Shown here: positions 1,239 to 20,641 of the stretch, piece after piece
Position numbering within the stretch: position 1 is the first letter of the stretch
How the letters are laid out: each line of letters opens with the position of its first letter
IMG/VR virus record: IMGVR_UViG_2537562190_000023
Source of the DNA: a virus
Taxonomy: Duplodnaviria; Heunggongvirae; Uroviricota; Caudoviricetes
Length of the DNA: 20,641 nt
Reading direction: 5' to 3' (one strand)
Notes under the pieces: model-generated
What the model was told of the DNA's origin: nothing
Databases searched by the model: none
What the model saw: the letters and a program-made list of their open reading frames with translations, nothing else
Program-made: the position numbers and the translations under genes

Positions 1239-3176
1239 TTACGGGTTATTCACTTCCACTGTTATACTTTCAATCAGCACCGGATATGTCGCACCGCTAG
1301 TGATATCGGTCACGCGCAATTTGTCTGCCGTAAACGTGCCGACCGGTGACTGTGACAGCATGAACGGCGTCCCGTCCTTACCATCAATGACCGGCGTCAC
1401 CTCAATACTGTTGTTACCGGCAAAACGGAAGCCCAGCGTATGCCATTCGTTATCAAATGCGCCGAATGACCCCAGCTTCGTGTTCTGACCAGCATTTCCC
1501 TTGTGGTACATCACATTAAGGTCTGTGGCATCGCTCTGTACGTAAAACGACGCCAGCAGGTTATGACCGGCATTACCTTCCAGTGTGACGCCCTGAGGCA
1601 GTGAAGAAACCGGCCAGTACAGCGCCAGTGCGTACTGATTAGCTGTCAGTGTGCCATCAACTTTAAAACGACAACTGATAAGCCCGCCCTTCTCCAGCAG
1701 GTCTGCGCCATTACCGGCATCATGCTGCATAAACCACGAGGAACTTCCTGTCTGTTTGGTCCACCTCAGCGCCTTACCTCCTGCAGCACCTGCATCATCA
1801 ACTACCAATGCACGCCCTCCTTCAGCTCCCCATCCCTGCGGATTCAGTAAACCACCTGACTCTGTTGCACGGTAATAAAGCAGCGTTGTCACTGATTTCC
1901 CGTCCGTTGACGGTGTTGATGGTGTGTCCGGTGACGGCTTCTCATCCGGCGGCATCACAACCTGTTCCCCACCCTCCAGTTCAGCCGTCCGTCCTGCATG
2001 GAGAAGAATCGCTGAGGCAAGACGGTCAGAAATAATCCCCCTGCGTGCCCATGAGCTGAAATGGCTCGCACGGTCTGCTGACGTCCAGTTTGCCGACGTC
2101 CGGGAGGCCGCACCGTAATATCCTGATGCCGGAATATCCGGGTCTTCTTCCGGTTTGTTCGTCGGGACATTTGCTCCGTTCTCATCGGTCATGAACGGCA
2201 CAAAGTGAATATTCTTTTCCGTTTTGTTTTTGTAACTGCCGTACACCGTCTGGTAAGTGGATTCGCTCTTCTGCTTCCAGAAATAAGTTGTGTCTCCACA
2301 TATCCAGGGAACACCGTCAGCAGAACCACCAGCGCACTGTCCCACCATATCTGCAAGGTCCGTACGATATTGTTCCACTACTTCTGTAAAACGGGCTGTG
2401 TGATTTGCTGGCGTTCCGTCAAAGTCAAATTCCCCCTGCATCCACACCACGGCAAGCAGCACATTTTTCGGGTTCTTTGCCAGCGCGGCTTTTGTACGAC
2501 CGATGAGATCCTTATACAGCGGCCTGCCCACACCCCAGCGGGTAGAACTCTCTGAGGCACCGGTCACGTCACTGTATGTTCCATCTGCCCCGGTGGTGAA
2601 AGCTGAACCACCACGGCAGCACGGAACCAGAAGAATACCCGCATTCGCCGGTATAAACGGCAGCAGCTTTTTGGCAATATGCAGCCCCTGCCCCACGGTT
2701 CCGTACTGACCTTTCGACAGGTCAGCTTTCGGATGGTTAAGACGGCTCATGTCCTGTACATCATGCAGACAGTGGTCTGCCGGAATAATGTCGTTATATT
2801 TACAGGGAGCGCCATCCGGCGTCACTGTGCTGCGACGAGCCAGTTGCTTTATACGCGGGTCAGGACGGTCATATGTCTGCGGCAGAGGAAGCCCCTCACC
2901 GTAAGCCATGCCGTTCGACTGCCCGGCCAGTGGAATAACGTAGTAATAATCTGGCTCCGTGGTGACCACTCCCGGATAGCCACCATCCCCCGTGCCGGGC
3001 ACAACCACTGGCGTGGTCACATCCCCCTCCGCGGCAATCGCCTGCATCAGGGTATAAGGGGTTATGGCCACCGGACTACCAAACGGCTGCCAGCCCTCTT
3101 TCAGTTTGTGTGTCAGCTTTTCCGCAAGATCTGACGGCGACGCCGCCCTGACAACATCATAATGTTTAATCGACAT
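1239..3176 (-). CDS. nanS: Prophage sialate O-acetylesterase of the NanS-p type (DUF1737 N-terminus, SGNH/SASA esterase core, C-terminal lectin-like domain), 645 aa
   Basis: Long ORF with ATG at 3176 and SD GGGAGAAA. N-terminus MSIKHYDVVRAASPSDLAEKLTHKLKEGWQPFG is DUF1737-like. The esterase motif PLAGQSNGMAYGEG (GQSN block) is present. Size and position (downstream of Q, upstream of holin) match the NanS-p esterases of Stx and related lambdoid phages. Confidence 0.8.
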   Translation of the reverse strand: MSIKHYDVVRAASPSDLAEKLTHKLKEGWQPFGSPVAITPYTLMQAIAAEGDVTTPVVVPGTGDGGYPGVVTTEPDYYYVIPLAGQSNGMAYGEGLPLPQTYDRPDPRIKQLARRSTVTPDGAPCKYNDIIPADHCLHDVQDMSRLNHPKADLSKGQYGTVGQGLHIAKKLLPFIPANAGILLVPCCRGGSAFTTGADGTYSDVTGASESSTRWGVGRPLYKDLIGRTKAALAKNPKNVLLAVVWMQGEFDFDGTPANHTARFTEVVEQYRTDLADMVGQCAGGSADGVPWICGDTTYFWKQKSESTYQTVYGSYKNKTEKNIHFVPFMTDENGANVPTNKPEEDPDIPASGYYGAASRTSANWTSADRASHFSSWARRGIISDRLASAILLHAGRTAELEGGEQVVMPPDEKPSPDTPSTPSTDGKSVTTLLYYRATESGGLLNPQGWGAEGGRALVVDDAGAAGGKALRWTKQTGSSSWFMQHDAGNGADLLEKGGLISCRFKVDGTLTANQYALALYWPVSSLPQGVTLEGNAGHNLLASFYVQSDATDLNVMYHKGNAGQNTKLGSFGAFDNEWHTLGFRFAGNNSIEVTPVIDGKDGTPFMLSQSPVGTFTADKLRVTDITSGATYPVLIESITVEVNNP

Positions 3177-7828: not shown

Positions 7829-8587
7829 TCAAGTGCCTTTCCTGGTCCAGCCATATTTTTTGAATGCAGGCGCCGCTTCATCGGTTTGTAGCCATTCTGC
7901 AAATCGACGGGTTTCATCATTTGCATCCTGACGTACTGTAATGTTCATATCACGCCATATCACGTAGTCTGGCGCTATTTCCACGACATCACCAATTTCT
8001 GGATTACTGGCTGCCCAGTCAGCCCAGGTTATCCAGACATCTGCTTCAGGCTGATTCTCAAGAGCCTTACGTGCAGTTCCGCTATTGGGCGCATATAAAA
8101 TAATATTTTTTCGGATTGCGGCGACAGTTTCTATATTCCCTTTACGTCCGGCAATATCTTCCCAGACGCCAGTGCCTGATGTATTACTGGTACCACCACC
8201 ATCATTAACAATTACGCCAATCCCGGGTCTGGTCAGGTCGTCAATACTCCGGATATTTTTAGGATTACCTTTCTTTACCAGTAAAATACTTTTTCGCAGA
8301 TAAAGAGGCTGAATATCTTTTTCACTGAAGCTGTCTTTATGGTCCCGAATGATAGCCAGAGCAGATTGTTCTGATGCGCCAAACAAGATATCTGCATTTT
8401 TTTTGGCATCTTCATTCCATTTGTTCTGTGGGCCGTAATGAACGTTCACTATAATACCTGTTTTTTCGGCATAAAGTTTGGCTGCATCAAGCAAGGCTGT
8501 ATGCGGGCCACCAGGACCATACAGATTGATATCAGCATAAGCAGCAGAAGACAGGAATATTAAAAAACCTGCCATTATGTTCCTCAT
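7829..8587 (-). CDS. Periplasmic substrate-binding protein of the ModA/AcfC-like family, with signal peptide; orphan (no permease or ATPase partner in the window)
   Basis: 252 aa. N-terminal signal peptide MRNIMAGFLIFLSSAAYA. Sequence pattern fits ModA/TupA/AcfC-type binding proteins as recalled. Strong SD AAAAGGAG. The flanks are visibly AT-rich. Confidence 0.7.
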   Translation of the reverse strand: MRNIMAGFLIFLSSAAYADINLYGPGGPHTALLDAAKLYAEKTGIIVNVHYGPQNKWNEDAKKNADILFGASEQSALAIIRDHKDSFSEKDIQPLYLRKSILLVKKGNPKNIRSIDDLTRPGIGVIVNDGGGTSNTSGTGVWEDIAGRKGNIETVAAIRKNIILYAPNSGTARKALENQPEADVWITWADWAASNPEIGDVVEIAPDYVIWRDMNITVRQDANDETRRFAEWLQTDEAAPAFKKYGWTRKGT

Positions 8588-9446: not shown

Positions 9447-10193
9447 TCATTGCCCGGACTTCCGACAAATCCCGGCAACCATATCTCGGTGCTTGTTCAG
9501 CTCCCGCAGCGCGGCGCAGACTCGCTCCCACTTCTGGACATGACTTTTCGCCCGACGCAATTCGCGGTTTGCCATATGCAGCGATGGTAAAACCAGGTCA
9601 TCCGCTCGCGTTTCAGTAAACGATGGCAACGATTGCACAATATCAGCCACAGTTTCTGTTTTAATATCTTCCTGTGTTGCAGCTTCCTGTACTGGTAACG
9701 CAACACCTGCTGACTGAGGAAAGGCTTTACCATCATTTTCCGTTACCGGCACGGATTTCGGCTCTGCTGGTAACTTATCGCCCGGCATGCAGTAACGAAA
9801 TTTACCGTTCTGGTTTACACGAATCAGACGACCTTTGCTGATTGCCATTGCCAGCGTTGAAGCCACTTTGCGTGATGTTGTACCGAACAACGTAGCCAGC
9901 TCATCAGCCGTTTGTGGTCCGCGTTGTTCAACCGTCGCAGTTAAATCGCACTCCGAAATTTTAGCGACTGTTGCCGTGGTGGTTTCTTCCGACAGTTCTG
10001 CCGGCGCTGGCTGTTCCTGCTGAACGTTGTTATAAGCCACACGCCAGGTGTATACGCTTTTATCAACGAAGCCAGCCTTTCTCAGTTCCCACAGCTCGTT
10101 CAGCACTTCTTCACGACTGATATCAAGTCGCGCAGCCAGCTCTACCGACGTGGCTTTTCCCATCGCTTTCAGTGCGTCAAAAACAGTCTCCAT
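9447..10193 (-). CDS. Hypothetical prophage protein with two winged-helix-like segments, 248 aa
   Basis: ATG at 10193 with strong SD GGGAGGAAA. Two HTH-like stretches ([30 protein letters not shown] and [33 protein letters not shown]). Lies directly after the replication genes. Confidence 0.6.
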
Positions 10194-10225
10194 AAATTTC
10201 CTCCCGGTAAAAATTACTTCTCAAA

Positions 10226-10891
10226 TCAGACAAACCCAGCCGCTTTCCGGCGTTCATATTCCTGTTTCAGCAACTCAATTGGCGTTGGTCCCGCAGGACG
10301 TTTGGGTGCTGCCAGTTGTCGCCGGACAGGCGGAACACTCAGGCCGTTGCTAACATGCTTTGCCCATTTCGTCAGCTGCCGTTCTGCAAGCCGTTTTAAC
10401 TCCCCTTCGGTCATCTGGCGTTCAATCCCCTTTGAACGCATCTCGAGGCAAATGTGATACAGCACAGGCTGAGACCACGGGTACTTATCACTTCCGTCGT
10501 ATCGCCAGGACTCATTGCGCCAGCGGCGGTACTCCTCCATCACAGCATCCACCGTCAGACCAAATGGATTGGCCCCGCTTTCCGAAATCAGCGCCACAAA
10601 CTCAGCCAGGTCCGGAGGCCATGTTTCACCCGCCCGGCAGCAGTCCATGCACTGGCGGCAGACCTGCCGGATTTGCTGCTCAGTCATCGCGCCAATCTGT
10701 GCAATCCAGAGCTTCGAAGGTGCGGCCCCGTTCTTCTGGGTCCAGCGGTTCGAATAAACCTCCCCCATGAGCTCCCACAGCTTCCAGGCCGTTTCCGTCG
10801 CTGATAAATCCGTTTTCACGTTCCCACTGCTCACGTGCTGCCCGAATTTCCTGAACTGCCCGTGATGCGGTTCCACCTGGTGCTGCTGCAT
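10226..10891 (-). CDS. Replication protein P-like (DnaB helicase loader)
   Basis: Similarity to lambda P as recalled (YPW motif, ELKRLAERQL, VPPVRRQL blocks). ATG at 10891 has SD AGGGGG, but this start overlaps the 3' end of the initiator gene by about 210 nt. An alternative coupled start at 10687 (ATGACTGA) would give 153 aa. Confidence 0.6.
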   Translation of the reverse strand: MQQHQVEPHHGQFRKFGQHVSSGNVKTDLSATETAWKLWELMGEVYSNRWTQKNGAAPSKLWIAQIGAMTEQQIRQVCRQCMDCCRAGETWPPDLAEFVALISESGANPFGLTVDAVMEEYRRWRNESWRYDGSDKYPWSQPVLYHICLEMRSKGIERQMTEGELKRLAERQLTKWAKHVSNGLSVPPVRRQLAAPKRPAGPTPIELLKQEYERRKAAGFV

Positions 10892-11720
10892 GGTTTACCC
10901 CCTTGCTGACTGGTTTAACCTGCGCCCTGACGTGATTTACGTGACGGGCGAATTTCTGCTCCCACTGAACCTGCGTAAACACTTTCCCCTCCGCTGCCCA
11001 GTAGTCCCGGAATGCGGCAAGTTCAGCAGGTGTGAATTCTGTCTCCGGCAAAGCCATCCCCCACAACGCAGCCCGTCGTCGAAAATCCCGTGACGGATAC
11101 CAGTTATCGGTCATCGGAAATTTTCCGATGGGTTCGCTCAGGCCATCCAGGAATACAGGGGGGACTGCCTGTAACGACAAAACTTCCTGCTCACTGGTCG
11201 GAGCACTCTCGCGTGCGTTATGTGTGGGGTTTAAATCTTTGGGTTCCTTTGGGTTCCGTGATCCGTTTTTGGGTGTCTTTGATGGAAAATTTGGGTGTCT
11301 TTGGTTATTTTCCATGCAGCAAAGAGTTCCGTTTTTGGGGCTGTTTTGTGCTGAAACATAACCGTTTTCGGTTCTGTTTTTATTAACAGTACCAATTTTA
11401 CCTACCTTTAAAGACTCCCGTTTTTGGGTGTATTCATCCTCGGTAACACTTTCTTCAACACCGATAAGTCGGTACACCACAATTTGTTTTGTCCGGCCTT
11501 TTCTCTCACCGGTATCAACAATTAACCCAATCTCCATCAGGTGTCGTAAGCTGTCCTGCACAGTCTTTTTGTTCAGTTCCGTTACTTCTGCCAGTGCAGA
11601 TACAGACGGGTATGCACACAAATCGGCACCGCACATATCAGCAAGCCAGGTCAATACTGACTTACTGGATGAACTGCCGGTTTTCACCTTTTTAGCCCAT
11701 CGTAGCGCATCGATACTCAT
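10680..11720 (-). CDS. Replication initiation protein (lambda O-like): N-terminal HTH, low-complexity linker encoded over the iterons
   Basis: ATG at 11720 (MSIDALRWAKK...). N-terminal HTH typical of phage initiators. The linker NKNRTENGYVSAQNSPKNG... is encoded by the iteron DNA, as in lambda O. The six-frame track's earlier start at 11795 is TTG. Confidence 0.6.
   Translation of the reverse strand: MSIDALRWAKKVKTGSSSSKSVLTWLADMCGADLCAYPSVSALAEVTELNKKTVQDSLRHLMEIGLIVDTGERKGRTKQIVVYRLIGVEESVTEDEYTQKRESLKVGKIGTVNKNRTENGYVSAQNSPKNGTLCCMENNQRHPNFPSKTPKNGSRNPKEPKDLNPTHNARESAPTSEQEVLSLQAVPPVFLDGLSEPIGKFPMTDNWYPSRDFRRRAALWGMALPETEFTPAELAAFRDYWAAEGKVFTQVQWEQKFARHVNHVRAQVKPVSKGVNHAAAPGGTASRAVQEIRAAREQWERENGFISDGNGLEAVGAHGGGLFEPLDPEERGRTFEALDCTDWRDD
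11237..11435. repeat. Iteron array (candidate origin of replication) inside the initiator gene
   Basis: Six or more copies of a TTTGGG core (consensus about CCGTTTTTGGGTGTCTTTG) at 11238, 11248, 11268, 11290, 11334 and 11423, spaced at roughly 10, 20, 22, 44 and 89 bp (near helical-turn multiples). Confidence 0.55.
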
Positions 11721-12243
11721 ACGAACCCCAGACAGATATTTGTTTATCTGCAAAGTAATGTTGGTATTGCTGACGATACGCACGCTTGAAAGCAATAGCT
11801 TTTTCTATAAGTTCGTCAGTCTCACGTTCCACAACAGCTGGATCCGCAAAAAGTAGCCCTGACTCCACCACATCGCCATATTCTTTGTTTAACCCGGCGA
11901 TCATGTACGTAATGCTTTTTCCGTCAGTAATTTCACGATACAACCTGAAATCACTGATCCGGATAGCCGCCATAATTGCCGGAATCAGCGCCGTGAATTT
12001 TTCCCGCTTATCCCTGGTGTCGATAGATTTCCAGCGTTCGAATATCTTCACCCGGTTAACGCCCAGCGCCCGTTGATCAACCGCGCCATCATCAAACGTG
12101 ACGCGTTGAACATCGATGTTCGGGCGTTCTTTCAGAGCCCAGAATGCTTCCGTGATTAATATCGTCGCCTGCTCCTGTGTCATTCCTGGTCGGCATACCC
12201 AGGCATCCAGAGCCTCACAAACCTGTTCAGGGGTGATTTTCAT
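11692..12243 (-). CDS. YdaT-like protein at the cII position, 183 aa (assignment tentative)
   Basis: ATG at 12243 overlaps the 3' end of the Cro-like gene. Position downstream of the Cro/YdaS-like gene matches the cI-YdaS-YdaT modules of Rac and CP-933P. Sequence identity to YdaT was not verified. Confidence 0.45.
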   Translation of the reverse strand: MKITPEQVCEALDAWVCRPGMTQEQATILITEAFWALKERPNIDVQRVTFDDGAVDQRALGVNRVKIFERWKSIDTRDKREKFTALIPAIMAAIRISDFRLYREITDGKSITYMIAGLNKEYGDVVESGLLFADPAVVERETDELIEKAIAFKRAYRQQYQHYFADKQISVWGSYEYRCATMG

Positions 12244-12454
12244 TGTTCAACCGCCCCGCCCGCTTTGCCTTACGATATTCGTCATAAACTTTGGGGTCGT
12301 ACTGAAGTTCCCCGCCGGATGCCTCTTGCAGGCGCATCGCGCGACCTTCAGGAACCAGTTCCCCCCATGCAGCAATGCTTGCCAACCTAACTCCTGCGGC
12401 ATTGGCAAGCTTTGTTTTGCTGCCAAAAAACGCTATAGCATCAATTTTCAACAT
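12227..12454 (-). CDS. Cro-like small HTH regulator (YdaS family-like), 75 aa
   Basis: Divergent from the repressor. SD AGGAG 6 nt upstream of the ATG. HTH pattern KTKLANAAGVRLASIAAW. Confidence 0.6.
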   Translation of the reverse strand: MLKIDAIAFFGSKTKLANAAGVRLASIAAWGELVPEGRAMRLQEASGGELQYDPKVYDEYRKAKRAGRLNNENHP

Positions 12455-12530
12455 ATCGAGCTCCTTAGATTTTCCTAAGGAAACTAGATCGTAGAGAAAC
12501 CTAAGTCAAGAAAAATTAGAATTCCCTAAT
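12455..12530. promoter_or_regulatory. OR-like divergent promoter/operator region between the Cro-like gene and the repressor
   Basis: Inverted repeat CCTTAG-N6-CTAAGG at 12463-12480. The 15-bp element GTAGAGAAACCTAAG at 12491-12505 overlaps a minus-strand -35 TTGACT. Plus-strand -10 TAGAAT at 12517-12522 places the start site at the repressor ATG (leaderless, no SD). Confidence 0.5.
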
Positions 12531-12938
12531 ATGAAAAACGAAACCTTCGGTGCTCGCCTCTTACATAGGCGTAAAAAATTAAAACTGTCTCAGGCCGCAT
12601 TAGGTAAGCTGGTCAAAGTGGCTCACGTAACAATTTCTCAATGGGAAAGAGATGAAACACAGCCGGCGGGGAAAAGATTATTCGCACTGAGCCAAGCGCT
12701 TCAGTGCTCACCGACTTGGCTTCTTTTTGGGGATGAAGATAAACAACCAGGCGAACCGATCCCGAATAATCAGCCAGCCATTCTGACAGAAGATCAAAAA
12801 GAGTTACTTCAACTGTTCGACGCACTGCCTGACTCAGAGCAAAAGGCCCTGTTGTCAGAGATGCGTGCTCGAGTTGAAAATTTCAACAAACTTTTTGAAG
12901 AACTACTTAAAGCTCGCAAAAGAAGCGCAAACAAATAA
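12531..12938 (+). CDS. Prophage repressor, XRE-family HTH, 135 aa, no S24 peptidase domain (cI functional analogue)
   Basis: N-terminal HTH (LKLSQAALGKLVKVAHVTISQWERDETQP). Divergent from the Cro-like gene. Flanked on both sides by the same operator motif. Too short to carry a LexA-like autocleavage domain. Confidence 0.75.
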   Translation: MKNETFGARLLHRRKKLKLSQAALGKLVKVAHVTISQWERDETQPAGKRLFALSQALQCSPTWLLFGDEDKQPGEPIPNNQPAILTEDQKELLQLFDALPDSEQKALLSEMRARVENFNKLFEELLKARKRSANK

Positions 12939-15272: not shown

Positions 15273-16874
15273 ATGAACGCTGATAAAGAAGAAATTGCAC
15301 TATATTACGAAGCCAAAAATGACAAAGTCAGAAAACGCCTTGGGATTAAAGGTGGTTTTTACTGGCGCACAGCAAAAAAATTATCGGTTGCAATATCACG
15401 TGGTGTTGCTGCAATGGACGATGCCGGATTTGACGAAGAGGATTTTAAAAAACCCATCCGCGTCCATTTACCCGTTGTGAATGACCTTCCACCGGAAGGT
15501 GTGTTTGATACTGAATTCTGCAACCGATACGAAAAAGGCGGAGAAGATGGTATCACAATGATACTTATCGCGCCCTCTGTTCCGGACAAACCAGCCAGTA
15601 CTGACAATACCAACGTCAACGGCGAAGACATGGCTAAGATTGAGGAGAATATGCTTCTTCCGGTTTCAGGTCAGATTCTGCCTGTTCGCTGGCTGGCGCA
15701 ACACAACAGCGAAAAACCGCTCACGCACGTTTCACTGGACAAACTGCGCGCATTACATAACGCACAGGATGAAAAACTTCCCGCCGTTACCGCGCTGGCC
15801 ATCTCAAATAAAGCAGTGCAACTCGAACCGCTGGAGCTTCGGGATTTGTACAAACTGGTGCGAGACACTGACAAAGTTTTCCCCGCCCCCGTAAATTCGG
15901 ACCTGGGACTGATGACCTCTTTTATCGAAGCATACCTGGGCGCTGACTACACCGATCGCGGTCTGCTTACAAAAGAGTGGATGAAAGGAAATCGTGTTTC
16001 ACGCATCAGCCGCACGCCATCCGGCGCTAACGCTGGCGGCGGCATTCTTACCGATCGCGGCGAAGGTTTTGTCCACGATGATGCGTCAGTGGCGCGTGAC
16101 GTAGCCACTGGCGTACTGGCCCGTTCAATGGACGTGGATATTTATAACCTTCATCCCGCGCACGCTAAACGCATTGAGGAAATTATCGCTGAAAATAAAC
16201 CGCCATTTTCTGTGTTTTTCAGCAAATTCATCACCATGCCGGGCCACAAGGATTACTCCCGCGCCATCGTGGTTGCGTCCGTGAAAGAAGCACCAATTGG
16301 TATAGAGGCTACTCCCCACCGTGTCACCGAATACCTGAATAAGGTGCTGACTGAAACCGATCATGCCACCCCTGATCCGGAAATCGTGGATATTGCCTGT
16401 GGTCGCTCCTCTGCCCCGATGCCGCAGCGTGTAACAAAAGAAGGAAAACAGGATGATGAAGAAAAACCGCAGCCATCTGGCGCAATGGCAGATGAACAGG
16501 CAACGACTGAAGCAGTGGAACCGGATACAACTGAACATAATCAGGACACGCAGTCGATGGATGCTCAGCCACAGATAAATTCTGTTGATGCGAAATATCA
16601 GAAACTGCGTGCAGAACTCCATGAAGCCAAGAAAAACATTCCACCCAAAAATCCTGTCGATGCAGATAAATTACTGGCTGCTTCTCGAGGAGAATTTGTT
16701 GAAGGGATTAGCGACCCGAATGATCCAAAATGGGTGAAGGGGATCCAGAGTCGCGATGATGATGACCAGAATCAGGATAAAGCGGAACAAAACAGCCCAA
16801 ATGCGTTACAAAACGAGCCAAAAACAAAACAACCTGAACCGCCCCGGGTTTCCTGGAGAGTGTTTTATCTGTGA
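15273..16874 (+). pseudogene. RecE-like protein, N-terminal fragment truncated by IS629 insertion (last 13 codons and stop are IS-derived)
   Basis: ATG at 15273 with SD GAGG. Long stretches resemble the N-terminal region of Rac RecE as recalled (for example [80 protein letters not shown]). The frame enters the IS at 16835 and stops at 16872-16874. Confidence 0.8.
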
Positions 16875-16876
16875 AC

Positions 16877-17764
16877 TCAGGCTGCCAGATCATCGTTTCC
16901 GATGGAAGCATAATAAGCTTTTTCTGCTTCTGCCGGGGGAGTATGGCCCAGCCTTTCCAGCAATCGTCGATTGTTATACCAGTCCACCCACGTGAGTGTG
17001 GCCAGTTCCACTTCTGCACGGTTTTTCCAGCTCTTACGGTGTATTACCTCCGCTTTGTAAAGACCATTGATGCTCTCCGCCATCGCGTTGTCATACGAGT
17101 CGCCAGTACTCCCTGTTGATGCCAGTAATCCGGCTTCCTTAAGCCGCTGCGTGTAGGCCAGCGATACATACTGAGAACCTTTATCACTGTGATGGATTGT
17201 GCCGGACGGCCGACGGGCCCACAACGCCTGCTCCAGTGCATCCAGCACGAATGTTGTTTCCATGGATGATGAGACCTGCCATCCCACGATGTATCCGGCG
17301 AACACATCAATGATGAACGCCACATAAACGAAGCCCTGCCATGTGCTTACCCAGGTAAAATCAGCCACCCACAACTGGTCTGGACGTTCTGCCACGAACT
17401 GACGGTTTACGCGGTCGCATGCGGCAACGGCTTTCCGGCTGACGGTAGTGCGGACCTTTTTACCCCGGAGAACACCGGCAAGTCCCATAACCGCCATGAG
17501 ACGTGCCACAGTGCATCTGGCCACTCTGATACCTTCCCGTAACAACTGACGCCAGACTTTACGCACACCGTATACCTTGTGATTTTCATCGTATACGCGC
17601 TGTATCTCTTTCTTCAGCCAGTCATCGCGCTGCGCACGGGCACTGCGTTTATCCGGATAATGTCGCTGTTGCTGACAGTGGTAATACGTTGACGGGGCAA
17701 TATGCAGTTCGCTGCATACCGGTCCGACCCCGTACTGCTCACGCAGCTTATCCAGCAGTGGCAT
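16877..17764 (-). CDS. IS629 transposase OrfB (DDE catalytic domain)
   Basis: 295 aa beginning [29 protein letters not shown] and ending ASIGNDDLAA, matching IS629 OrfB as recalled. ATG overlaps the orfA stop (TAATG). Confidence 0.9.
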   Translation of the reverse strand: MPLLDKLREQYGVGPVCSELHIAPSTYYHCQQQRHYPDKRSARAQRDDWLKKEIQRVYDENHKVYGVRKVWRQLLREGIRVARCTVARLMAVMGLAGVLRGKKVRTTVSRKAVAACDRVNRQFVAERPDQLWVADFTWVSTWQGFVYVAFIIDVFAGYIVGWQVSSSMETTFVLDALEQALWARRPSGTIHHSDKGSQYVSLAYTQRLKEAGLLASTGSTGDSYDNAMAESINGLYKAEVIHRKSWKNRAEVELATLTWVDWYNNRRLLERLGHTPPAEAEKAYYASIGNDDLAA

Positions 17765-18090
17765 TATTTTTTCCAGAGGCGGTCGAACTCCGCCTTCGCA
17801 AAATAAGCGGAAGCCTGGCGAAGGATATCGTTACTGCGGCGCAGTTCACGATTTTCACGTTCCAGCTCTTTCAGACGCTGACGTTCAGCGGTGGTGAGTC
17901 CACCATCACCACTCCCGGTATCCCGCTCATGCTGGCGAACCCAGACACGCAGAGTCTCCGGCGTACAGCCAATCTTTGGGGCAATGGAACAAATTGCCGC
18001 CCACTGTGAGTCATATTCATCCTGACTTTCCAGAACCATACGAATCGCCCGCTGACGGACTTCGGGGGAAAAACGAGTATTTTTAGTCAT
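17764..18090 (-). CDS. IS629 transposase OrfA (HTH / leucine-zipper part)
   Basis: 108 aa [59 protein letters not shown]..., matching IS629 OrfA as recalled. An A6 run sits at the orfA/orfB junction, where IS3-family -1 frameshifting occurs. Confidence 0.9.
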
Positions 18091-18157: not shown

Positions 18158-19003
18158 GTGCAACAAGAACCAGAAAAAGTTTGCACCACATGTGGTCAGA
18201 CCGATGGCGGCAACTGCCCTGATTGTGGAGCGGTAATGGGTGACGCAACCTACCAAGAGACATTCAACGAAGAAAGCCAGGATGAAGCCCGGAAAAAAAA
18301 TCCGGAGGAAATGGAAAATGCCGTGCTCCCGAATAAGCAATGCACCGAAGGCGATCAACATGCCAATGGCAATAATGAAACAGGCGAGACAGCAAATCCC
18401 TTAATTACGGTGAACGGTCATCACGTTATCACATCCACCAGCAGGACGTGTGACCATCTAATGATCGACCTTAAAACCATGGGAAAAAATCCTGATGCCC
18501 CGATTATCTCAATAGGTGCAATATTTTTCGATCCGCAAACCGGAGATATGGGACCGGAATTTAGTAAGACTATCGATCTGGAAACTGCTGGCGGAGTCAT
18601 TGATCGGGACACCATTAAACGGTGGCTTAAGCAATCACGCGAAGCGCAATCTGCCATTATGACCGATGAAATCCCGTTAGATGATGCACTGTTACAATTG
18701 CGGGAATTTATCGACGAAAACTCCGGTGAATTTTTTGTTCAGGTCTGGGGAAATGGAGCCAACTTCGACAACACGATTTTGCGCCGTTCATACGAACGGC
18801 AGGGGATCCCCTGCCCGTGGCGTTACTACAACGATCGCGATGTACGCACAATCGTTGAGCTGGGGAAAGCCATAGACTTCGATGTCAGAACTGCTATCCC
18901 ATTCGAAGGTGAGCGCCATAATGCACTTGATGACGCCCGTTATCAGGCAAAATACGTTTCAGCTATCTGGAAAAAACTGATCCCGAGTCAGGCTGATTTT
19001 TAA
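18158..19003 (+). CDS. C-terminal fragment of the IS-split RecE-like gene: DnaQ-like 3'-5' exonuclease domain
   Basis: In frame with 15273-16834 once the IS and one ACC copy are removed (…[17 protein letters not shown]…). Exonuclease motifs [13 protein letters not shown] and [13 protein letters not shown] are present. First motif reads MIDLKTMG. The ORF begins with GTG at 18158; an internal ATG at 18461 precedes the domain. Confidence 0.7.
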
Positions 19004-19345: not shown

Positions 19346-20641
19346 ATGAGAGAAGCTGAAATGAAATATCCGACAGGCGTGGAAAACCATGGAGGGAAAT
19401 TACGTATCTGGTTTGTTTATAAAGGTGTAAGAGTCCGGGAAAATCTTGGGGTTCCTGACACAGCAAAAAACAGGCGCATTGCAGGTGAGCTACGCGCCTC
19501 TGTTTGTTACGCAATAAAAACTGGCGCTTTCGACTATGCAAAACAGTTTCCCGCCTCACACAATCTGGAAAAATTTGGTGAGGCCCGACAAGATTTAACC
19601 ATAAAAGAACTGGCTGAAAAATTTCTGGCACTGAAAGAAACTGAAGTCGCAAAAACGTCACTCAACACGTACCGTGCCGTCATCAAAAATATTCTGAGCA
19701 TAATCGGTGAAAAAAATCTTGCATCATCGATTAATAAAGAAAAATTGCTGGCGGTACGTAAAGAGTTACTGACTGGATACCAGATCCCCAAAAGTAACTA
19801 TATTGTTACACAACCAGGGAGATCGGCTGTTACCGTAAATAATTACATGACAAATCTTTACGCCGTGTTCCAGTTTGGTGTTGATAACGGTTATCTGGCA
19901 AACAATCCATTTAAGGGGATCTCACCATTAAAGGAGTCGAGAACCATCCCGGATCCACTTTCGCGGGAGGAGTTTATCCGCCTTATTGACGCGTGCAGAA
20001 ATCAGCAAGCCAAAAATTTATGGTGTGTTTCCGTTTATACTGGGATTCGCCCTGGTGAACTGTGTGCGCTTGGATGGGAAGATATAGATCTGAAAAATGG
20101 AACAATGATAATCAGAAGAAATCTGGCAAAAGACCGTTTTACAGTACCAAAAACACAGGCGGGAACCAATCGTGTGATTCACCTTATTAATCCCGCAATC
20201 GACGCTCTCCGGAGTCAGATGGCACTAACGAGACTGAGCAAAGAGCATATCATCGATGTTCACCTCAGAGAATTCGGCAGAACAGAGAAACAAAAATGTA
20301 CCTTTGTTTTTCAACCTGAAGTGTCAGCGAAAGTAAAAAATTATGGTGACCATTTTACCGTTGACTCAATAAGGCAGATGTGGGACGCAGCGGTAAAGCG
20401 TGCCGGAATCCGCCATCGCAAATCGTATCAGTCGAGACACACTTATGCCTGCTGGTCGTTAACAGCAGGAGCTAACCCGGCATTCATTGCAAACCAGATG
20501 GGCCATGCAGATGCGCAAATGGTGTTTCAGGTGTACGGGAAATGGATGTCAGAAAATAATAATGCGCAGGTAACGCTGTTAAATACACAGTTAAGCGAGT
20601 TTGCCCCAACCATGCCCCATAACGAAGCGATGAAAAGTTAA
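19346..20641 (+). CDS. int: Phage integrase, tyrosine recombinase family
   Basis: 431-aa ORF (or 426 aa from the ATG at 19361). C-terminal catalytic region with R...H..R...Y signature (RNLAKDRF, SRHTYACWSL, MVFQVYGKWM). The stop codon is the last triplet of the window. Confidence 0.85.
   Translation: MREAEMKYPTGVENHGGKLRIWFVYKGVRVRENLGVPDTAKNRRIAGELRASVCYAIKTGAFDYAKQFPASHNLEKFGEARQDLTIKELAEKFLALKETEVAKTSLNTYRAVIKNILSIIGEKNLASSINKEKLLAVRKELLTGYQIPKSNYIVTQPGRSAVTVNNYMTNLYAVFQFGVDNGYLANNPFKGISPLKESRTIPDPLSREEFIRLIDACRNQQAKNLWCVSVYTGIRPGELCALGWEDIDLKNGTMIIRRNLAKDRFTVPKTQAGTNRVIHLINPAIDALRSQMALTRLSKEHIIDVHLREFGRTEKQKCTFVFQPEVSAKVKNYGDHFTVDSIRQMWDAAVKRAGIRHRKSYQSRHTYACWSLTAGANPAFIANQMGHADAQMVFQVYGKWMSENNNAQVTLLNTQLSEFAPTMPHNEAMKS

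Follow-up and report, generated by a model that had tools for sequence, protein, structure and literature searches.

A repeat array embedded in the initiator gene of an Escherichia coli lambdoid prophage as its probable replication origin

Does a cluster of short repeats inside a phage replication gene mark the place where replication of that phage begins, or does it only mirror the protein encoded there? The question is raised by a stretch of 20,641 nucleotides (nt), hereafter the window, held in IMG/VR as virus record IMGVR_UViG_2537562190_000023 and assigned to the Caudoviricetes. Within it, a gene for a replication initiation protein (the initiator), encoded on the minus strand, carries a run of TTTGGG motifs that an earlier, sequence-only reading had taken for a helically phased iteron origin. 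Our results point toward the idea that these repeats are the replication origin of a lambdoid prophage, embedded in the gene of its own initiator, a reading that we consider probable by analogy with phage lambda. The arrangement is the textbook lambdoid one; it is an expected one and involves no new mechanism.

A dyad repeat array in the linker-coding part of the initiator gene

On the plus strand, TTTGGG starts at 11238, 11248, 11268, 11290, 11334 and 11423, the last copy ending at 11428, and the offsets of 10, 20, 22, 44 and 89 base pairs (bp) claimed by the sequence-only reading are exact. Counting both strands, the whole window holds 16 copies against a mean of 16.8 in shuffled sequence, so that the signal lies in the clustering: of the 11 same-strand copies, 6 are packed into 191 nt (11238-11428), a tightness reached by none of 2,000,000 random placements and, when strand is ignored, by 2.5e-6 of placements. 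Placements were simulated in place of a Markov-simulated hexamer test, which is confounded by homopolymer runs.

The six cores are real, but they do not form the single repeat class first described: they comprise four to five iterons of the form CCC-W5-GG (W, A or T) plus two units GGAACCCAAA. Read on the coding (minus) strand, the iteron unit is CCCAAAAACGG(G), with the dyad form CCC-(A/T)5-GGG. A longer unit, CCGTTTTTGGG, is present exactly at 11263, 11329 and 11418 and with 2 mismatches at 11362, and outside the array no copy of CCGTTTTTGGG or CCCAAAAACGG with 0-1 mismatch occurs in the whole 20.6-kb window. In terms of dyad sites, CCC-(A/T)5-(C)GG(G), of which the best form is AAAGACACCCAAAAACGGG, the linker-coding DNA carries five recognisable ones at gene nt 293, 349, 382, 426 and 448 and a decayed one at 319, the part of the gene that encodes the winged helix ending at about nt 264. 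Their spacing is irregular, from 22 to 56 bp. Left flanks AAAGACA and right flanks GAGTCTTT or AACTCTTT extend the core into a larger dyad, roughly AAAGACACCC-AAAAAC-GGGTGTCTTT; the right arm of iteron 1, GGGAGTCTTT, is an inverted copy of the left arm AAAGACACCC of iterons 5 and 6. The repeats fall at amino acids (aa) 98-160 of the initiator, between its winged helix (aa 1-88) and a DnaT-like domain (aa 197-267), and their overlap with the linker of the protein is as the sequence-only reading had it.

The repeat unit recurs in all three codon frames, which argues that selection acts on the DNA sequence rather than on a repeated peptide. CCCAAA stands in frames 2, 1, 3, 1, 3 and 1, contributing to the peptides TQKR, PKNG, HPNF, PKNG, NPK and EPK, and synonymous resampling with the protein held fixed yields on average 1.1 CCCAAA, with a probability of 0.0004 for six or more. 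Per-site polymorphism among 54 close E. coli haplotypes is 0.20 for the array, compared with 0.11 for the stretch that encodes the winged helix and 0.26-0.41 for the sequence downstream; of the array positions, 4 of the 36 in cores are variable, as are 43 of the 194 others.

On the antisense (plus) strand, iterons 4 and 3 form two terminator-like hairpins with T runs at 11325-11373. Their number is within chance expectation, and they could block antisense transcription into the array.

The array in distant relatives and the GAAYC units behind it

A tblastn search with the N-terminal half of the initiator returned homologues of 33-58% identity, including proteins of phages EPP-1, phiV10, H20, AP22 and Bcep176. 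We compared 27 relatives, namely Edwardsiella EPP-1, E. coli phiV10, Vibrio H20, Acinetobacter AP22, Burkholderia Bcep176 and loci in 22 species genomes, the latter from a scan of one genome per species with a three-sequence alignment as query and including Acinetobacter, Proteus, Providencia, Pseudoalteromonas, Oxalobacter and a metagenome-assembled genome (MAG) of the Beijerinckiaceae. With at most 2 mismatches, the core is found on the coding strand at gene nt 240-620 in 26 of the 27, and almost never elsewhere in the approximately 3.3 kb analysed per locus; one MAG has 12 matches (11 distinct sites) in all three frames. Family-wide, the core occupies the three codon frames 48, 14 and 15 times. 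The array regions of the relatives hold 77 coding-strand sites together with 66 opposite-strand matches, which is consistent with the dyad CCC-W5-(C)GGG, and the last copy of an array is usually the best palindrome, as in GTCCCAAAAACGGGAC and ACCCAAATTTGGGT. The core also differs by clade, reading GTCCCAACAAYGG in Acinetobacter prophages and AGTCCCAAAWWW in Burkholderia and an alphaproteobacterial locus.

The sites are collinear between the window (293/319/349/382/426/448) and EPP-1 (293/319/352/385/418/440), and a Klebsiella relative keeps a near-intact second site. Among the relatives, C-terminal domains and partner genes vary (lambda-P-like, DnaB-like helicase and others) while the winged helix stays with the array. 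Rac-SA53 YdaU presents the reverse case, its C-terminal half being 91% identical at the nucleotide level, with another N-terminus and no array. The array therefore goes with the DNA-binding domain.

A second conserved DNA element, GAAYC (Y, C or T), is recognised by sequence comparison just after the last iteron, in the position of lambda's unwinding tract. Among relatives, 16 of 20 loci (comparison of loci L002-L006 and L089-L109) have the first GAAYC exactly 17 nt from the first C of the last iteron, an offset that holds whether this iteron lies in frame 1, 2 or 3. The relatives carry 2-4 GAAYC units there, of about 12-13 bp and spaced by 9-13 bp, and the window has GAACC at +17 and +27 nt, within its two GGAACCCAAA units. 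These units are a second candidate for an unwinding or single-strand-contact element.

In Acinetobacter the units, GAATCTCTCATTAG, resemble the 13-mer R of E. coli oriC, GATCTCTTATTAG, and may be an unwinding element, a lead that concerns that genus and does not apply to the window's own units. Natural alleles of the initiator also differ at this place. A truncated allele of 170 aa (P0002, 37 member sequences) ends in ...NPKEPKGTQRFKPHT, an end that, judging from protein sequences, fits a third 10-bp GGAACCCAAA unit that would shift the frame to a stop, and another of 167 aa (P0004) has an apparent frameshift just downstream of the GGAACCCAAA units. This tandem repeat of non-triplet length looks like a point at which the initiator gene is prone to mutate.

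Kinship with known origins, and a possible mechanism

In the published model, a lambdoid origin is made up of iterons and an AT-rich tract and lies midway along gene O (PMC7466680). In lambda, taken as a control, the four annotated iterons lie at O-gene nt 349-416, directly after the winged helix and in frames 1, 3, 3 and 2. As in lambda and the Stx phages 933W and P27, the window has several CCC-A/T tract-GGG dyads in the initiator gene, right after its winged-helix part; its sites likewise occupy all three codon frames and encode a hydrophilic linker, a P-type loader gene comes next downstream, and AA/TT dinucleotides recur every 11-12 bp. The gene order cro, ydaT, initiator, P on one strand, with a divergent repressor gene, would fit transcription of the array from the cro promoter. 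The window differs from lambda in several respects: its dyad, CCC-A5-CGG(G), is shorter (about 12-16 bp) than lambda's TCCCTC-AAAAC-GAGGGA, its spacing is irregular with one site decayed, the place of lambda's AT-rich tract behind the last site is taken by two GGAACCCAAA units, and the C-terminal domain of the initiator is DnaT-like, unlike that of lambda O. Lambda's iterons include an AAATT variant and the window's a CCCAAATTTTC variant; in this regard, window iteron 5, CAAAGACACCCAAATTTTC, is comparable to lambda iteron 3, TCCCTCAAATTGGGGGA. The likeness to the lambda origin that the sequence-only reading saw is upheld as regards dyad repeats placed after the DNA-binding domain regardless of frame and a P-like gene downstream, but it does not extend to the position of the AT-rich tract or to membership of the Pfam O family.

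Direct homology between the initiator and lambda O was considered and rejected, since BLASTP gave no alignment between them and hhalign a probability of 4%; in addition, the initiator has no match to Pfam Phage_rep_O at E <= 0.01. A link through shared PHROGs remains: PHROGs 678, 345 and 270 ('replication initiation O-like') match the N-termini of both proteins, which may at best be remote relatives in their N-terminal domains. In the AlphaFold model, the N-terminal domain has four helices and a two-strand wing at a mean pLDDT (predicted local distance difference test) of 71.5. Its best fold matches in the PDB are dimeric winged-helix regulators, CodY, ArsR/SmtB and MarR, with template-modelling scores of 0.5-0.6; a search by sequence found no solved structure for it, and the fold search gave generic winged-helix regulators only. 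A hydrophilic linker separates this domain from the DnaT-like one, in which aa 194-270 align with DnaT 82-157 (PDB chains 6aep, 4ou6 and 9zbt, E about 1e-18). The PPompW phages, which are 97% identical to the window, have this gene annotated over 1041 nt as 'phage replication protein'. Where the DnaT-like domain begins, positions 11112-11130, in the codons for IGKFPM, form a perfect 9+9 palindrome, CATCGGAAA-A-TTTCCGATG; it is partly conserved in the ydaU of Rac-SA53 and may be a codon-level accident.

On the minus strand the early operon runs cro, ydaT, initiator, P, DUF1627, with the Cro-like gene first (Table 1). The open reading frame (ORF) of the loader, taken from the ATG at 10891, matches PHROG 109 ('P-like helicase loader') over aa 19-220 and Pfam P from aa 56, and its first 212 nt (10680-10891) coincide, in another frame, with the 3' end of the initiator gene. 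RefSeq relatives annotate a short P of 153 aa with an 8-nt overlap; the long ORF nonetheless looks real because its match to the PHROG 109 profile begins at aa 19. PHROG 15931, of 482 positions, has a match in the initiator as well as in the loader. A simple scan for sigma-70 promoters gave no match in 10100-12700, and DnaA boxes number 5 against 5.0 expected, none of them near the array.

Table 1. Features of the replication module and its surroundings in the window.
Feature	Coordinates	Strand	Remarks
Initiator gene, 346 aa	10680..11720	-	PHROG 1032 'replication initiation protein', 4e-92
N-terminal winged-helix domain, aa 1-88	11457..11720	-	AlphaFold model; presumed iteron reader
Iteron 1, ATACACCCAAAAACGGGAGTCTTT	11410..11433	-	Core 11418-11428, codon frame 2
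Decayed iteron 2, GGTAAAATTGG	11392..11402	-	Gene nt 319; intact CCCAAAAACGG there in EPP-1
Iteron 3, degenerate, ACCGAAAACGG	11362..11372	-	2 mismatches, frame 1
Iteron 4, CAGCCCCAAAAACGGAACTCTTTG	11320..11343	-	Core 11329-11339, frame 1
Iteron 5, A/T-tract variant or half-site, CAAAGACACCCAAATTTTC	11285..11303	-	Frame 3
Iteron 6, last, CAAAGACACCCAAAAACGGATCA	11259..11281	-	Core 11263-11273, frame 1
Two tandem 10-bp units GGAACCCAAA	11238..11257	-	Counterpart of relatives' GAAYC repeats
AT-rich tract, 29% GC (guanine plus cytosine)	11371..11415		Most AT-rich of the replication module; candidate unwinding region
DnaT-like single-stranded DNA (ssDNA)-binding domain, aa 197-267	10920..11132	-	Pfam PF17948, 2.5e-17
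Lambda-P-like helicase loader	10226..10891	-	Pfam PF06992, 1.6e-16; PHROG 109, 1.8e-62
DUF1627 gene	9447..10193	-	Follows the loader in the early operon
YdaT-like gene	11692..12243	-	Pfam PF06254; between cro and initiator
Cro-like gene	12227..12454	-	Pfam P22_Cro, 3e-13; dicC in PPompW annotation
cI/DicA-like repressor gene, divergent	12531..12938	+	Pfam HTH_3, Phage_CI_repr

Beyond lambda, the iteron origins of theta plasmids (RK2 with TrfA, F with RepE, R6K with pi) resemble the window in having a winged-helix initiator and repeated sites beside an unwinding element. In plasmids of this type the initiator reportedly contacts one strand of repeated motifs in that element, a possible model, by analogy, for the GAAYC repeats. 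These plasmids differ in that the rep gene does not contain the iterons, which as a rule are direct repeats of about 17-22 bp read by monomers; DnaA boxes accompany them, whereas those of the window are at chance level. An origin of the iteron-plasmid kind (Rep_3 or RepA type) was rejected, given repeats inside the gene, DnaA boxes at chance and no Pfam match of Rep_3 type for the N-terminal domain, the initiator having a single winged helix. E. coli DnaT, primosomal protein I of the PriA restart primosome, has a C-terminal ssDNA-binding domain clearly homologous to that of the initiator, but it lacks a sequence-specific DNA-binding domain and cognate repeats and acts at stalled forks with PriA, PriB and DnaC; the initiator joins this domain to a winged helix and has a lambda-P-like loader as its partner. 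A full-length DnaT architecture was likewise set aside, the match being C-terminal only and the N-terminus a winged helix. Origins within initiator genes are also known from other phages, as oriL of SPP1 in gene 38 and in the rep genes of lactococcal and streptococcal phages, whose initiator families, repeat sequences and hosts are unrelated to those of the window.

The helical phasing proposed from the sequence alone proved real as a periodicity, with its peak at 11.0 bp, but not at 10.5 bp. From 6-7 core positions the best period is 10.9 bp (R 0.82-0.84), of marginal significance (P 0.04-0.11), and the same positions show no significant periodicity at 10.5 bp. The AA/TT periodogram of 11230-11440 is clearer: it has a sharp peak at 11.0 bp with a power of 2.85, which none of the 801 other windows of equal size reaches (maximum 1.93), and at 10.5 bp a power of only 0.25. 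Strict 10.5-bp phasing was rejected on both counts. In line with these findings, the arrays of 12 of 14 relatives, and that of lambda, have an AA/TT peak at 10.9-11.9 bp; the site-to-site spacings vary among the relatives (17, 22, 24 and 33 bp). A period just above the helical repeat would give the DNA a curved, left-handed path, which suits wrapping around a protein core.

The AT-rich stretch that had been noted at 11380-11410 is real, but it sits inside the array, between iteron 1 and the rest and partly over the decayed iteron 2, and not at the position of the AT-rich tract in lambda. Its 40-mers, within 11371-11415, go down to 27.5% GC, and 1.8% of the 40-mers of the window are as AT-rich. 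For the opening of the duplex in this copy there are two candidate sites, either 11238-11262 or 11371-11415.

If the initiator works as lambda O does, its N-terminal domain would bind the dyad sites as dimers. The A-tracts that recur every 11 bp would curve the DNA, and the bound array would wrap into a compact complex whose strain would open an adjacent weak stretch, be it the GAACC repeats (11238-11262) or the AT-rich tract (11371-11415). The DnaT-like C-terminal domain would then hold the ssDNA, recruit the lambda-P-like loader carrying the host DnaB helicase, or do both. Transcription from the cro promoter would cross the array, as it does at the lambda origin. In lambda, O also contacts the single strands of the AT-rich tract, and the two iterons that adjoin this tract suffice for unwinding in vitro (PMC7466680).

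Weight of the evidence, prophage setting and meaning

By its sequence, the window belongs to a lambdoid prophage of E. coli and shares 97% identity with the 'PPompW' phages of enterohaemorrhagic E. coli (EHEC); its module is identical in prophages of the O103:H2 strain 12009 and in several EHEC genomes. Of 5426 complete E. coli genomes, 908 carry the winged-helix-plus-array module (11200-11730) at an identity of at least 95%, in up to 4 copies each, and EHEC prophages adjacent to or nested with Stx phages are among its carriers. A scan of viral contigs matched only E. coli copies, 97-100% identical. One record, NZ_CP148379.1 (8,461 bp), was deposited as a complete circular plasmid and holds the repressor, cro, YdaT, initiator and P genes with hokD, rem and a few others as cargo and no other replication gene, a layout like that of lambda-dv. 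It lends circumstantial support and may be either a real autonomous circle or an assembly artefact.

The end of an Exo VIII-like ORF (15273-16874) adjoins an IS3-family transposase encoded on the minus strand (16877-17764 and 17764-18090), and this recombination gene appears to be interrupted by the insertion sequence (IS). Beyond the IS lie an exoribonuclease-like ORF (18158-19003) and an integrase (19346-20641). Cargo of the EHEC-prophage type is found at 1239-3176 and 7829-8587: a NanS-p-like sialate O-acetylesterase (DUF1737 + SASA + DUF6645) and a Paa/AdfO-like protein of solute-binding fold.

Several points weigh against the origin reading. The searchable literature yielded no binding or replication experiments on this initiator family. 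After the last iteron there is no AT-rich tract, the GC fraction being 0.45 from +14 to +54 and 0.52 in the 60 nt beyond, compared with 0.49 in the gene overall, whereas it is 0.20-0.42 (AT-rich) in the same region of most relatives; the sole AT-rich tract of the window lies inside the array. Exact iterons number only three, because one is decayed and two are variants. Little evidence of constraint comes from the polymorphism among the 54 E. coli haplotypes. An assembly artefact may underlie the small circular record, and with an IS in the Exo VIII-like gene this prophage copy need not be active.

Some of these points bear on a reading in which the family architecture is a real origin and this copy a degenerate or inactive relic in a decaying prophage. 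The decay of iteron 2 relative to EPP-1 and the Klebsiella relative, the post-array region that is not AT-rich, the IS3-family element within the Exo VIII-like gene and the truncated initiator alleles in other E. coli are what such a relic would present. We nevertheless hold it to be unlikely: the initiator ORF is intact at its full length of 346 aa, in agreement with the PPompW annotation, the module is carried unchanged by several EHEC genomes and is widespread in the species, and lambda itself needs, in vitro, only the two iterons next to its tract. Quite unlikely, in our judgement, is a purely regulatory array, bound by the initiator for autoregulation, copy control or as a transcription roadblock, with the origin elsewhere in the prophage. 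Iterons of iteron plasmids do serve copy control as well, and sequence alone cannot separate binding from initiation. Even so, neither the window, at 0-1 mismatch, nor, in most relatives, the approximately 3.3 kb around the gene holds a further site, and there is therefore no second candidate array; position and grammar match the proven lambda origin, and the chance-level DnaA boxes speak against that reading too.

Other explanations place the repeats outside DNA recognition altogether. That they are a by-product of a low-complexity, slippage-prone protein linker, with no role as DNA, could be argued from the Pro/Lys/Asn-rich linker that the region encodes, from the tandem 24-bp units of phiV10 and Vibrio H20, which are in frame and encode perfect peptide repeats, and from the differing copy number of the 10-bp unit among natural alleles. 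Against this, one DNA core appears in all three frames in the window and throughout the family, it persists from Vibrio to Burkholderia in genes whose GC content spans 36-60%, it has dyad symmetry, GAAYC keeps its fixed offset of +17 regardless of frame, and the array is absent where the N-terminal domain differs, all of which makes the by-product very improbable. For an element acting in the mRNA, through hairpins that affect translation or stability, the chance appears negligible. The dyad units are able to form short hairpins, and the fold of the 221-nt RNA scores z = -2.09 against shuffles, 3 of 200 of which were as good; that score is modest, however, many of the sites are half-sites that lack a partner arm, and the predicted fold joins distant AAAGAC/GTCTTT arms instead of single units. 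An RNA-level element was rejected as the leading explanation on the grounds of this z-score and the long-range pairing.

A replication origin embedded in the gene of its own initiator is accordingly the reading that we prefer. The searchable literature gave no description of an origin for this initiator family, searches on iterons in lambdoid phage genes and the paper on the Eru replication region made no mention of the module, and a search with the exact motifs returned unrelated primer matches only. A bolder and doubtful proposal is that of an undescribed two-part origin common to the family, made of a near-universal core CCCAAAAACGG, from Vibrio and Proteus to E. coli phages, and of GAAYC at +17, the latter perhaps read as single strands by the initiator. 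Precedents for such reading are the Rep proteins at plasmid unwinding elements and DnaA at DnaA-trios. With a core in common, the initiator of one prophage could fire the origin of another in the same cell; if true, this cross-firing would couple the induction of separate prophages in multi-prophage EHEC strains.

The findings presented here offer an annotation signature for such origins, arrays of CCC-W5-GG followed by GAAYC at +17, and fragments usable for lambda-dv-like vectors or for tests of prophage cross-talk. They mark a probable origin for a replication module that is present in about one in six (17%) complete E. coli genomes and that has homologues in phages of Vibrio, Acinetobacter, Burkholderia, Proteus and Edwardsiella. 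In this regard, the lambda rule that places the origin in the linker of the initiator would extend to an initiator family with a DnaT-like C-terminal domain.

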